Below, piece after piece: positions 1-13,573 of a DNA stretch of 64,000 bases. The notes under the pieces were generated by a model, which ran no database searches, had not been told where the DNA came from, and was given only the letters and a program-made list of their open reading frames with translations. Location of the stretch: sequence record PP464953.1; one strand, given 5' to 3'. Both the position numbers and the translations under genes were made by a program. The stretch comes from Escherichia phage ECP2309. Numbering within the stretch: position 1 is the first letter of the stretch; each line of letters begins with the position of its first letter.

Positions 1-433
1 GGCGGACGAAATGGGAATACTTCTCATTCTTATAACAATTCTCAAATATCAAGGCAGTGAGGCAAATTAATAGGTGAGGCCGTTCACACAGTGGCACAAC
101 ATTTGCAACCTATCTTGTGTGGAGGAATGAGAATACCTATCATTGTGAGAACCATTATCATTACGGGCAATTTAACATAATACCCATTATGCGCACCACT
201 GGCGATACATACAGGGATTGATAACATGAGTTACTGTTTACGCATATAACAATTATATTTCTTACTATTTGTGTGGGATATAGTTAGCAACCAATAGATT
301 AGATATTGACCTGCAGACTTCTGACCGTCCAGACGTCTAAACGCCCACACACCAAGGGTTATACATACATTCCTGAATGTAAACAGGGCCGCAAAAATGC
401 TACCATACCAGTTTGTAAATTTTTCATGCAGCA

Positions 434-550
434 CTTGACAAAGAGGAGAAAAACTTGTCTGACACTTTTGCCACTTTTGACACTTTTACCTTTGACACAA
501 TGTCACACAATATGCCATAATCTGACACCTTATACACTTTCGACACAATA
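434..550. repeat. cluster of TGACAC(TTTT) direct repeats
   Basis: TTGACA/TGACAC copies at ~436, 460, 477, 492, 523, 542 and inverted TGTCAC at ~501; no ORF of 60 aa or more is credible here. Confidence 0.6.
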
Positions 551-585
551 ACGACTGTTATTATTTCATGTTTCATTGTTCACGT

Positions 586-645
586 ATAGACTATTCCCGC
601 ATAGACTGTTTACGCCTGGATAGTTTACACCTTGACAGTTTACAC
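586..645. repeat. tandem ~15-bp direct repeats with core GTTTAC
   Basis: atagactgtttacgcc / tagtttacacc / cagtttacac read directly; further copies near 235, 1047, 1091 and inverted near 379. Confidence 0.6.
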
Positions 646-657
646 AAAGATGATAAG

Positions 658-896
658 CCATGACATTCGTTTGCATGATAACAATTAACAAGTTAATAAT
701 ATATGACATAATATAAAAGCAGGGCAACTATTAGCAGATCTATAGTTGCCTTGCTTGTTATGTCATGATTAACTAAATACAAGGCAACTATGATCTGATT
801 AATAGATTGCAGACAAACTATCACGGGGGTGATTGTTACTGCTTTTATATTATGTCGCGACTCCGTCGCGCCATGCCATTCGTTTGCATAGTTGCC
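658..896. repeat. nested direct/inverted repeat block
   Basis: ccatgNcattcgtttgcat at 658-676 and 871-889; 16-bp inverted repeat gacataatataaaagc (705-720) / gcttttatattatgtc (841-856); GGCAACTAT at 723-731 and 783-791 with inverted ATAGTTGCC at 742-750 and 888-896. Confidence 0.65.
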
Positions 897-1500
897 TTAT
901 TGTTACAGGTAAAACAATTACATTGTTAACTATTTCTTATCTTTCTCTTAGTCATCTAATGATTCCAGTCAGTATAGTTATGTGCAGTAAACATTAGACG
1001 ACTAAAGATTTCTCTGATTATAGTAACCTATCGTGACAATTTAGGACTGTTTACGAAAAATGTTGACACTTGAGCTGATTTATGTTATGCAGTTTACACG
1101 AATAATTATTTTATGCAGGTATTGACTATTCCGTTATTCTGTGGTTGGAATAAATACTTTGCAGGCTATAGAATGATGTGCGTACGTGAATTCTGAGATC
1201 TGGCGGCTATAGTTACACCCGATTTTTCACGTAGGACACGCTTTTGTGGTTGTGTAAGTGTATGACTTATAAGGGTTTTTAATTGTTGACAGTATACTGA
1301 AGATGTGTATCAGGTTAAATTTTGTGCAATAGTTGCATTACGTGCATTTTTGGAAGGAAAAACGTGTAAAAATGGCCCTGCTACCACACAATGAAAGATT
1401 ATGCAATAGTTATTTTCCATGTATATTTGTACAGTATGTGGGATTGATGGCTAGTCAATTATTCCACTTGCCAGGTAGGGCCGTTTATGGTAGGAGAAGA

Positions 1501-2795: not shown

Positions 2796-2826
2796 CGGTT
2801 TTTATAGTTCTTATATGACAGGCAGG

Positions 2827-2845
2827 CCCGGTGATTGTCTCCCCC
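2827..2845 (-). repeat. GGGAGACAAYCACCGGG motif copy
   Basis: reverse complement of the motif found on the plus strand at 12451-12468 and 12585-12603. Confidence 0.5.
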
Positions 2846-2929
2846 TGTTCCCAAGTGCCGCCCGTTTAATAAGAATAGCAAAAGGGGCCGAACAAGTCAA
2901 CCCCAAAATCAGTACCAAAACACTTTTAT

Positions 2930-11769: not shown

Positions 11770-11967
11770 TTATTTTTTATTAAACCAGTGGTTGATCTGG
11801 CCTTTTGTCAGGGCGCAACGATTAAGCTGTTGCCGAGTATAGCTCTGACCGCGACGGAATTTATAAAGGCCTTGCCCGTTGTTGATGGTTACATCCACCC
11901 GGCAAACCATTTGATCGGTGACCACCTGGCGAGTGTTGCGACGTACTTTGATTCCGTAGGCGTTCAT
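11770..11967 (-). CDS. small basic protein
   Basis: track ORF 65 aa; SD AGAGAGGA. Confidence 0.5.
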   Translation of the reverse strand: MNAYGIKVRRNTRQVVTDQMVCRVDVTINNGQGLYKFRRGQSYTRQQLNRCALTKGQINHWFNKK

Positions 11968-12020
11968 GATTTTTTATCCTCTCTGTTAATTGGTGTGGTG
12001 TTGTTCACCTTGCGAGGATA

Positions 12021-12049
12021 AGAATAACAATAACTGTACGAGCTGTCAA
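12021..12049 (-). promoter_or_regulatory. sigma70-like promoter TTGACA-N17-TATTCT
   Basis: read on minus strand upstream of ATG at 11967. Confidence 0.5.
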
Positions 12050-12386
12050 CCATTAGTTAGAATTATTTTTTTTGGGCAGAATTCTCCAGCCGCCGCCCCT
12101 ACCAGGTTAACCATCGTTTTTTCGTACTCTTCTTTATGTTCCAACGCTCCCGCCATAGCCTTTTCAACCAGGGCGATAGCCTCAGCGTCATTAATCGCTA
12201 CATTTCCAGGGGATCAAATTACCTTTCATTTTTGTACCTCCTCTTCAATTGTTACCTGCCCTATAGCATAGGCCTACCAGGTTTGCAAGCTTTCACTCTC
12301 TCCTACCTGGTCAGTCAGGTCCTGCCAGGTTGGCCCCGCCAGGTTGCAACGGTTAGCGCATCAGGTTAGAATTTTTTTGAAAAGTG

Positions 12387-12510
12387 TTGACAGCGGCCCC
12401 GCCAGGTGGCACAATATACCTATCGGAAGGACGGCAGGCACCGGTGACGGGGGAGACAACCACCGGGGATGGGCGCTGCATAAAATGAGAACGGTTATCA
12501 TTATCATTTA
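12387..12510 (+). other. structured non-coding unit A (candidate sRNA or regulatory element)
   Basis: starts with TTGACA; contains GGGAGACAACCACCGGGG and ends with near-palindrome GGTTATCATTATCATT. Confidence 0.4.
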
Positions 12511-12530
12511 AAAATTTATGCAAAAAATCC

Positions 12531-12640
12531 TTGCTTTCTTTGTCCTGTGTGATACTATAATAACAAGCCGGGGCAACAGGGGCCGGGAGACAATCACCGG
12601 GGGTGCCCGTTATTCTGCAAACGAGAATGATTATCATTCA
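12531..12640 (+). other. structured non-coding unit B, related to unit A
   Basis: TATAAT at 12556-12561; contains GGGAGACAATCACCGGGGG and near-palindrome AATGATTATCATTC. Confidence 0.4.
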
Positions 12641-12765
12641 AAATTCTAAATGAGAACTTTTCGCATTTCATAAATTTAGTTAGCATGCTAATTACCTACC
12701 GTGACAATTCTATATAAAATAATACCTCCTTAAATATTTCCATATACAAATTTTAAAAATCCATT

Positions 12766-12932
12766 TCCGAAAACGAAAAATCGATTTCGTCCCCAAAAAT
12801 TTCAGGTCGAGCTCCGGAACGATTTCCAGAAAATCTGATTCAGAAAACGAAAAACAGATCGAGTACTAAGAAATTTATCGAGAAAAATTTTCAGAAAATT
12901 CAATCTTTGAAACGAAAAACAGATCGAGTACT
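12766..12932. repeat. iteron-like direct repeats GAAAACGAAAAA(C/T)(A/C)GATCGAGTACT
   Basis: copies at 12769-12790, 12843-12867, 12909-12932 in AT-rich DNA with many shorter repeats. Confidence 0.6.
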
Positions 12933-13243
12933 GAGAGAGATGTATCAAAACCTACTGAGAATAATGGGCTTATTGTTATAAAAGGTCAAAGGTAAGCTGG
13001 GAAAGTTCTGGTAGAAGGGTGAGGGTATGTGCGGAAAATCTGGAATAGTAACTTAAAGTACGGTGCGAACGATAGAATGAGCAGCACATCTTATCGCGCC
13101 TGTCTTGAAAAATCCATTTTAGTTTTCGATCCATTTTCTGATTTTCTAAGAATTTTAAAATATCCGGCCAGGTAAAATATCAAAAGGAGGAAATCCATTT
13201 TAGAAATCCTCCTTATACTTGATGTGCCAGGGATTTTCAAGTA

Positions 13244-13573
13244 TCAACTGTCTTTGTTTTTAGGCTTGTGCATACGTAGAGGTATGGTCTTTATAACATT
13301 CCATCTACCCAACCCCTCCCAGTTCCAATTGTGAGCGTGATACCCGGTTATGCATGCACTGCTGGCGTGATCATAAGCATAAGAGAACGCTATGCGAACC
13401 AAGTGGGGCCAGTCCCTCCACGGCTGTGGACCGTAAGCCTTCCTCCAACACCGACACAAACTAATTGTCTCAAGAATAGGTAGAATAACAAATCCATATA
13501 CCGCCACCAAAATGGTCAGAGCAATGATTGTCAGGAATACATACCCTGCAGTTGAAATAATGATCTCTGTCAT
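13244..13573 (-). CDS. membrane protein
   Basis: track ORF 109 aa; hydrophobic N-terminus; SD AAAGGGGA. Confidence 0.5.
   Translation of the reverse strand: MTEIIISTAGYVFLTIIALTILVAVYGFVILPILETISLCRCWRKAYGPQPWRDWPHLVRIAFSYAYDHASSACITGYHAHNWNWEGLGRWNVIKTIPLRMHKPKNKDS

Follow-up and report, generated by a model that had tools for sequence, protein, structure and literature searches.

We analyzed positions 12387-12640 of a 64,000-nt stretch of DNA (hereafter the window) from Escherichia phage ECP2309 (PP464953.1), where a first-pass annotation had described a tandem pair of related structured units, each ending in a near-palindrome that resembles the binding site (Fur box) of the ferric uptake regulator Fur. 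The phage is an rV5-like Vequintavirus: the region matches Escherichia phage ECP2303 (PP261279.1) with 100% identity, and rV5 and over 100 further Vequintavirus genomes with about 90%. The assembled genome has 136,403 bp; window coordinate x corresponds to record coordinate x + 459, and the window spans the end and the start of the record. The neighbouring genes are all minus-strand genes for small proteins without known function, with strong PHROG matches. The ECP2303 annotation has no coding sequence between window positions 12156 and 13091, and the leftward operon upstream ends near 13166-13200, at a minus-strand hairpin with a T-run that looks like a terminator. The two units therefore lie inside a gene-free gap of about 1 kb.

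All the elements listed in the first-pass annotation were found in place, in the order promoter hexamers, G+C-rich block and palindrome (Table 1). Each unit has a plus-strand sigma70-type promoter, a short G+C-rich leader with an invariant GAGACAAYCACC, and a 19-bp palindrome, and both shared blocks were recovered by a repeat finder (families D3 and D4/D6). Judged from their sequences, the units are tandem paralogues of a module that is dispersed in large virulent enterobacterial phages (Vequintavirinae, Phapecoctavirus). Sequence comparison strongly supports the palindromes as Fur-type operators, and it is likely that Fur itself would bind them. The unit 1 promoter is kept in rV5, L006, L009 and AlexBoehm. 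In the predicted hairpin of the unit 1 leader, the apical loop carries GAGACAA (12453-12459), within the invariant GAGACAACCACC (12453-12464). The unit 2 promoter was not called by the promoter scan because its spacer is 19 nt long; every related lineage has a promoter at the equivalent place before the leader, and the homologous spacers measure 17-18 nt.

Table 1. Features of the two units, their surroundings and related sites elsewhere, in window coordinates.
Feature	Coordinates	Strand	Remarks
Second cluster, three Fur-like boxes	10..162		Inside a gene-free region of ~2.9 kb
Third copy of promoter and leader, no box	2800..2905	-	TTGACT-17-TATTCT; exact GAGACAATCACC
Promoter-like site upstream of unit 1, TTGCAA-17-TAGAAT	12344..12372	+	Promoter scan 9/12; consensus match only
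Open reading frame (ORF) annotated as ORF198 in rV5 (93 aa)	12353..12637	-	Overlaps both units; unannotated in ECP2303
Unit 1 putative promoter, TTGACA (12387-12392)-17-CACAAT (12410-12415)	12387..12415	+	Promoter scan 10/12; spacer holds CCGCCAGGTGG motif
Unit 1 leader, predicted imperfect 14-bp hairpin	12434..12479	+	Minimum free energy -20.1 kcal/mol
Unit 1 shared G+C-rich block, GGGAGACAACCACCGGGG	12451-12468	+	
Unit 1 putative Fur box, AATGAGAACGGTTATCATTATCATT	12484..12508		Overlapping registers 12484-12502 (AATGAGAACGGTTATCATT) and 12490-12508
Unit 2 putative promoter, TTGCTT (12531-12536)-19-TATAAT (12556-12561)	12531..12561	+	Read from sequence
Unit 2 leader	12563..12617	+	Predicted hairpin 12571-12608; invariant GAGACAATCACC at 12587-12598
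Unit 2 shared G+C-rich block, GGGAGACAATCACCGGGG	12585-12602	+	
Unit 2 palindrome, AACGAGAATGATTATCATTC	12620-12639		
Unit 2 putative Fur box, AACGAGAATGATTATCATT	12620..12638		1 mismatch to box pattern
Third, weaker Fur-like box, AATGAGAACTTTTCGCATT	12649..12667		3 mismatches; exactly 29 bp past unit 2 box
Weak promoter-like site, TTAGCA-17-GACAAT	12680..12708	+	By eye, 8/12, below scan threshold
Direct repeats, GAAAACGAAAAACAGATCGAGTACT...	12756..12936		Repeat families D1, D2; rightward transcripts would enter them

A Fur box was defined as a 19-bp A/T-rich inverted repeat, GATAATGATAATCATTATC, or its 7-1-7 form, TGATAATnATTATCA, and both units contain one. The classical Fur consensus GATAATGATWATCATTATC agrees with 12487-12505 at 16 of 19 positions, and such matches occurred in none of 100 shuffles. 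Using the 9-1-9 box pattern AATGAKAATNATTMTCATT with at most three mismatches, we found eight matches in the 64-kb window against 0.27 expected, and nine in the whole genome against 0.38 expected. Seven of these nine fall in two gene-free clusters, at 12484-12667 and 10-162. The two registers of the unit 1 box differ from the pattern at two and three positions; unit 2 also holds a perfect 7-1-7 core (GAATGATTATCATTC, 12625-12639), and its box is invariant across five Vequintavirus sequences. The palindromes thus combine the features by which a set of host-factor sites was judged: they match the motif, they exceed chance, and their position is conserved among related phages.

The likeness extends to operators in bacteria. 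The consensus box of the related phages, AATGAGAATGATTATCATT, differs from the unit 2 box by one base and from the unit 1 box by two. This exact 19-mer is present in at least 120 bacterial genomes; the matches listed include Firmicutes, Beta- and Gammaproteobacteria, cyanobacteria, Chloroflexi, SAR86 and Legionella, and among them the copies are almost always intergenic, 20-80 nt ahead of a gene start. We ran Pfam on 97 genes flanking copies in the matches listed. The most frequent assignments were TonB-receptor Plug (12), FUR, Fe-type solute-binding and cupredoxin-like (7 each), and ZnuA-type (4), and ferritin, rubrerythrin, lysine/ornithine oxygenase, IucA/IucC, FeoB, imelysin and a siderophore-type binding protein were also found; taken together, these assignments amount to a Fur regulon. 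Nineteen nt of the box (TAAATGAGAATGATTATCA) are identical to a site 45 bp upstream of mntH, beside the MntR palindrome AAACATAGCCTTTGCTATGTTT, in 1,024 of the 5,426 complete E. coli genomes; Fur and MntR are both reported to repress mntH. The resemblance to the Fur-box class noticed in the first-pass annotation is therefore borne out, with the consensus 19-mer preceding Fur-regulon genes across phyla and sitting at the mntH promoter.

Across 53 distinct phage boxes, the half-site reads AATGA(G/T)AA(T/C). Deviations were mirrored in the opposite half at 7 of 113 positions, compared to 6.7 +/- 2.0 when halves were paired at random, and RNAalifold detected no compensated change in the palindrome. 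Since the half-sites vary independently, we take the palindromes as sites for a dimeric DNA-binding protein rather than as RNA hairpins. The exact 19-mer was also found in 110 non-redundant viral contigs: only four boxes fall within a long ORF, 52 lack an ORF start at 200 nt or less, and 69 show two or more boxes within 400 nt. A 30-nt box query matched 962 phage records, T5-like phages included.

The gene-free region of about 2.9 kb around the second cluster (window 1-1500 and L283 2600-4004) lies between convergent gene blocks and is probably the box labelled "non-coding" in the rV5 genome paper. Dense TTGACAC and TTTACAC repeats are present there at 420-660.

The units proved to be conserved in related genomes, and sensitive blastn extended unit 2 far beyond the genus. 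Window positions 12522-12678 aligned with Phapecoctavirus (Stephanstirmvirinae) at about 71% identity, and 12583-12670 with Seunavirus, Certrevirus, Mydovirus and Pectobacterium/Erwinia phages at 81-89%, with flanks that were not alignable. We compared the arrangement of the elements in about 25 phages. Without exception, their plus strand carries a sigma70-type promoter, followed by a G+C-rich leader of 54-57 nt and then by the first box. The promoters keep their position and differ in sequence among lineages (TTGCAA, TTGATC, TTGCTT, TTGACC or TTGACA; 17-19 nt; TATATT, TATTAT, TATTCT, GATAAT or TATAAT), and GAGACAAnCAC is invariant in the leader. A covariance model built from the Certrevirus, Mydovirus and Seunavirus leaders identified unit 2 of the window with 37.9 bits (E = 1.3e-7). 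The first box starts 3 nt past the leader, as given by the end of the model match, in every lineage. Later boxes follow in exact 29-bp steps from start to start, separated by unconserved 10-bp spacers, with one to eight boxes per array (for example L286 701-899, L014 1301-1406, L015 1238-1314 and L036 255-362, in Vequintavirinae and Phapecoctavirus). The step from 12620 to 12649 in the window is likewise 29 bp. PVP-SE1 has a single box at this locus, and in L267 a second locus repeats the leader and box.

In other genera, a conserved non-coding element of about 95 nt with its own plus-strand promoter is found just upstream of the unit, with the pattern ACGCC-ACCCCAC-GGCG-AAAAGGCGGGGCUAAC...GGAAGGUGGAUCGCCGGUAG (L013 1320-1420; L016 1030-1120; L017 1040-1130; L014 1080-1170; also L080, L259, L267 and L284-L291). 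A possible remnant lies at window 12424-12446. The CCCC of its hairpin loop and a downstream GGGG change together (UACCAAC/UUGG in L290, AACCAAC/CUGG in L259 and L267), which suggests an H-type pseudoknot RNA; this element had no Rfam match. On the other side of the unit, the weak site at 12680-12708 corresponds in position to a downstream promoter in other genera, which has an A/T-rich upstream element in L013, L016, L017 and L080. Repeat arrays are present elsewhere at a position equivalent to that of the direct repeats in the window (L013 1640-1800; L016 1330-1520; L287 770-980), with GATCGAGAAC, A6T6, TACGAT and GATC-rich sequence. The downstream repeats look like iterons, and in some records they are covered by annotated ORFs with a "poor ribosome-binding site".

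The description of the two units as a tandem pair holds in that they are paralogues; the pair is not obligatory. The 5' half of unit 1 differs from unit 2 in the window, and in the IMG/VR contig L012 (138,984 bp) unit 1 is a clean copy of unit 2. AlexBoehm has a single fused unit, therefore the two are not required as a pair. The third copy of promoter and leader in the window, at 2800-2905, is followed by a second promoter (TTGACA-17-TAACAT) and by a leftward operon starting at 2712.

The first-pass annotation could not assign the units to a known riboswitch class, and we reached the same result: an Rfam covariance-model scan of the window gave zero matches at gathering score, a permissive threshold over 11900-13400 returned only matches at chance level, and five related loci had no Rfam match. 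We found no signs of a riboswitch; no gene lies downstream, and the units are not in the 5' untranslated region of a regulated gene. The broader claim that the units are structured stands only in part: unguided RNAalifold was empty for the G+C-rich block and fold energies were at best marginally better than those of shuffles, and what remains is a shared imperfect hairpin in the leader, brought out by structure-guided alignment. Whole units folded singly on both strands gave z scores of -0.1 to -1.7, which are not significant. The unit 1 leader folds marginally better than shuffles (z = -2.1), with 5 of 200 shuffles folding equally well. In plus-strand minimum free energy folds, nearly all leaders adopt one common design, in which the RNA begins with nucleotides that join TGCCCGYY in an outer stem, and an inner stem bears (G)AGACAAnCA in its apical loop. 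When 25 distinct leaders were aligned under guidance of the model, 85.7% of cells were paired, compared to 39-50% with slid partners, and 6 of 13 pairs showed double changes, a level reached by 2 of 500 shuffles; in both figures the alignment was fitted to the model. On the plus strand, these pairs include 27 G-U cells and 9 A-C cells, and the excess of G-U points to a plus-strand RNA, in agreement with the direction of the promoter. The segment after CACC reads GGGGGTG, GGACCTG, GAACCTG or GCCCCTG in close relatives, without compensation. Inspection by eye suggested covariation, in several lineages, of an alternative stem of 3-4 bp immediately before GAGACAA, but the third copy in the window does not have it. 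A search of the window for targets complementary to the leader loop returned only the leader copies. Overall, a conserved imperfect leader hairpin is plausible rather than established, and the comparative support for leader structure is no more than moderate.

The observations to be explained are thus the identity of the boxes with Fur operators, their enrichment, conservation and fixed syntax, and the independence of their half-sites. We tentatively propose, with somewhat less than even confidence, that host Fur gates rightward non-coding transcription according to the iron status of the host. The sigma70-type promoter would fire rightward, opposite to the flanking genes, and the G+C-rich 5' leader of about 55 nt would probably fold as an imperfect hairpin displaying the invariant GAGACAAnCACC. 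Three nt past the leader, one or more 19-bp operators would be bound, as DNA and not as RNA, by Fur-Fe2+ dimers. In the window, the boxes lie at about +55 to +100 relative to the unit transcripts, and at about -50 to -90 relative to the rightward promoter that comes next; bound Fur could accordingly limit elongation from the unit promoter (roadblock), occupy the region upstream of the next promoter, or both. The iron-responsive output would be the leader RNA together with read-through into the repeats at 12756-12936. The strict coupling of promoter, leader and box, in two subfamilies and again at the second locus of L267, argues that Fur binding is functionally linked to rightward transcription. 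Binding of Fur in vivo, promoter activity, the direction of the effect and its biological pay-off are what we infer in this proposal.

Several observations weigh against it. In the usual geometry of Fur repression the box overlaps the -35/-10 elements; here no convincing promoter on either strand is overlapped in this way, and no protein-coding gene lies downstream on the plus strand in any lineage compared; the units are therefore not a case of ordinary repression of an iron gene, and roadblock action by Fur is assumed. The downstream promoter is weak in the window (8/12) and not evident in Certrevirus loci. The boxes are also dispensable in part. Unit 2 of L012 keeps its promoter and leader, and its box is replaced by unrelated sequence (around minus-strand position 12516 and downstream), with the box of unit 1 retained; in AlexBoehm, the promoter and 5' half of unit 1 are joined, inside the shared GGGAGACAAYCACCGGG, to the 3' half and box of unit 2. 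Regarding the hairpin, RNAalifold on an unguided MAFFT alignment of 21 leaders returned no leader structure and only the Fur palindrome, without covariation. Shuffled sequences fold as well as the unit 2 leader (z = +0.2) and the third copy do. The alignment behind the pair statistics was itself fitted to the model, and in five sequences the outer stem contains an A-C mismatch. We also considered a Fur-repressed promoter on the minus strand, ATGAAA-17-TAGAAT at 12671..12643, between the boxes. It was rejected, since no counterpart is conserved in the other genera, whose left neighbour is a plus-strand gene.

The main rival, compatible with iron-dependent gating and not exclusive of it, is that the boxes act as a sponge: replicating phage DNA, at hundreds of copies, would titrate Fur, host iron uptake and RyhB would be derepressed as a result, and the phage would gain iron for its iron-dependent ribonucleotide reductases. 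The phage indeed encodes iron-dependent NrdA/NrdB and NrdD/NrdG, plus glutaredoxin. Boxes that stand alone, overlap no promoter and control no gene are consistent with titration, as are the range of copy number in the arrays, from one to eight, and the occurrence of stand-alone boxes in most of the 110 unrelated viral contigs as well. Multicopy Fur boxes derepress Fur-controlled reporters in E. coli, which is the principle of the Fur titration assay (FURTA). However, a pure decoy has no need of a fixed link to promoter and leader, nor of a first box always at 3 nt. The genome analyzed here has about seven boxes, and PVP-SE1 has one at this locus; no infection transcriptome with Fur-regulon derepression was found in the searched literature. 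We regard titration as the less likely account, although it ranks ahead of the readings that follow.

Less probable still is that the palindromes are operators or iterons of a phage-encoded DNA-binding protein, for instance at a transcription-activated replication origin, and that their likeness to Fur boxes is convergent. The absence of genes from the locus, its promoters pointing in one direction, the 29-bp phasing of the boxes and the GATC-rich direct repeats would fit this reading. Such a function would require exact convergence on the Fur operator, given that the box consensus is identical, base by base, to distant Fur-regulon operators and to the E. coli mntH site. Moreover, the same 19-mer is found in unrelated phages from many environments, without an obvious common protein, and we identified no candidate phage protein.

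We consider it very improbable that the units are small structured RNAs, similar to small regulatory RNAs or riboswitches, in which the palindrome would be an RNA hairpin or a terminator. Each unit does have a promoter ahead of it, a common leader hairpin with a conserved loop is plausible, and the palindromes are able to fold. Against this stand the lack of any Rfam match and the palindrome itself, which shows no compensatory change in the 53 variants, nor in RNAalifold, is not followed by a U-tract, and has no downstream gene to regulate. A scan for intrinsic terminators over 12387-12700 found none; the palindromes consist mainly of A and T, with A-rich sequence after them.

Finally, a minus-strand protein or a degenerate tRNA cluster can be practically dismissed: rV5 annotates the 93-aa ORF198 here and Klebsiella phage OY978796.1 (L013) has tRNA-Met and tRNA-Ile annotated over DNA homologous to the leader/Fur-box unit, but the length of ORF198 is erratic among five Vequintavirus sequences (94, 92, 109, 7 and 27 aa), the ORF is absent in other genera, and ARAGORN predicts no tRNA in the window or in L013. 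As its length is not conserved and its ATG is part of the Fur palindrome, ORF198 is spurious. The tRNA-Lys, tRNA-Ile and tRNA-Met annotations of OY978796.1 (878-953, 1420-1497 and 1501-1573) are likely artefacts, the L013 sequence having no cloverleaf. A leaderless plus-strand peptide starting at the ATG of ACATGGCG was also rejected, as its frame differs between PVP-SE1 and anhysbys.

Two further observations concern the surroundings of the units. At 12190-12228 on the minus strand, a good ribosome-binding site (GAGGAGG) and an ATG open an ORF that stops after 12 codons; with the frame shifted, a plausible protein of about 58 aa would run into an annotated small coding sequence (rV5 ORF197 region), and the break is possibly a frameshift or a sequencing error. 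On the plus strand, the motif CYRCCAGGTKR is present five times within 310 bp (12099-12409), one copy lying in the unit 1 promoter spacer as GGCCCCGCCAGGT(T/G)GCA. In related genera, CCWGG is likewise present in the promoter spacers together with GGCC, and the motif could be a Dcm site or a factor site.

A wider scenario, which we regard as doubtful, is that large virulent enterobacterial phages (rV5-like, phi92/phAPEC8-like and possibly T5-like) recruit Fur to phased gene-free arrays, either for iron-responsive non-coding transcription or for a titration that forces iron import for the phage ribonucleotide reductases; the arrays would be coupled to an undescribed family of promoter-proximal hairpin RNAs with the loop GAGACAAnCACC. 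If Fur binds, phages that are widely used in O157 typing and in therapy would have an infection programme that responds directly to iron status, the main nutritional signal in the gut, or alternatively the phage would reprogramme host iron uptake. An effect of iron limitation on phage efficacy could then be tested with simple mutants, and the box loss in unit 2 of L012 is natural variation that can be used experimentally. Binding would also give a function to conserved "junk" that annotation pipelines fill with spurious ORFs and tRNAs. The phenomenon could be general.

We searched the literature for Fur boxes, Fur titration and Fur-regulon derepression in virulent phages, and for Vequintavirinae transcriptomes, and found nothing relevant. 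The rV5 genome paper notes only the "non-coding" box and sigma70 promoters, and does not mention Fur. Stand-alone phased arrays of Fur boxes in the non-coding DNA of strictly virulent phages thus appear not to have been described so far. With the boxes of the Fur regulon, such as the iucA and mntH operators of E. coli, those of the phage share the sequence class, a palindrome, in the phage with independent half-sites. Regulon boxes, however, overlap the -35/-10 of an iron gene, whereas the phage boxes form 29-bp phased arrays in gene-free DNA, past a promoter and a leader.

Fur boxes on phage DNA in E. coli have precedents. The stx1 promoter controls a cargo gene of temperate phages and is Fur-controlled. 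In lambdoid coliphages, a fur box is found upstream of sitABCD (PMC6969025). Both are ordinary promoter operators of prophage cargo, while the phage analyzed here is virulent and its boxes have no cargo gene. Sites for other host regulators are also known in phages: LexA boxes in phage GIL01 (PMC4551915), CtrA boxes in virulent Alphaproteobacteria phages (PMC9437464), and PhoB-dependent control in response to phosphate in cyanophages (PMC10976474). These are likewise conserved sites of host transcription factors that tie the phage programme to host physiology. In contrast, the Fur-like sites described here lie inside non-coding units and arrays, and not ahead of phage genes. The Fur titration assay also places many copies of Fur boxes on a replicating element, as here, but it is a laboratory artefact of plasmids, and a natural viral use is hypothetical.

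The closest parallels in genome organization concern the T5 left terminal repeat, for which untranslated repeat regions with palindromes and DnaA boxes have been described, with no mention of Fur (Davison preprint, 10.1101/866236). Like the present locus, the T5 repeats are gene-free and highly conserved, belong to a large virulent coliphage, and combine palindromes with host-factor sites; the sequences are not homologous, and the leader was not seen in the one T5-like locus that we inspected (L035, DT571/2). T5-like phages (for example Escherichia phage DT571/2, L035/L074) have several Fur-box-like palindromes in non-coding terminal repeats, annotated as LTR, DTR or repeat_region. As for the leader, the nut boxB and HK022 put elements of lambdoid phages are also short hairpins with a conserved loop just past several promoters, comparable to the three leader copies in the window. 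They have no sequence similarity to the leader, and we see no sign here of a partner protein or of antitermination. Sites for host regulators are already known from phage DNA; in the present case they are joined to what may be a new family of promoter-proximal leader RNAs.

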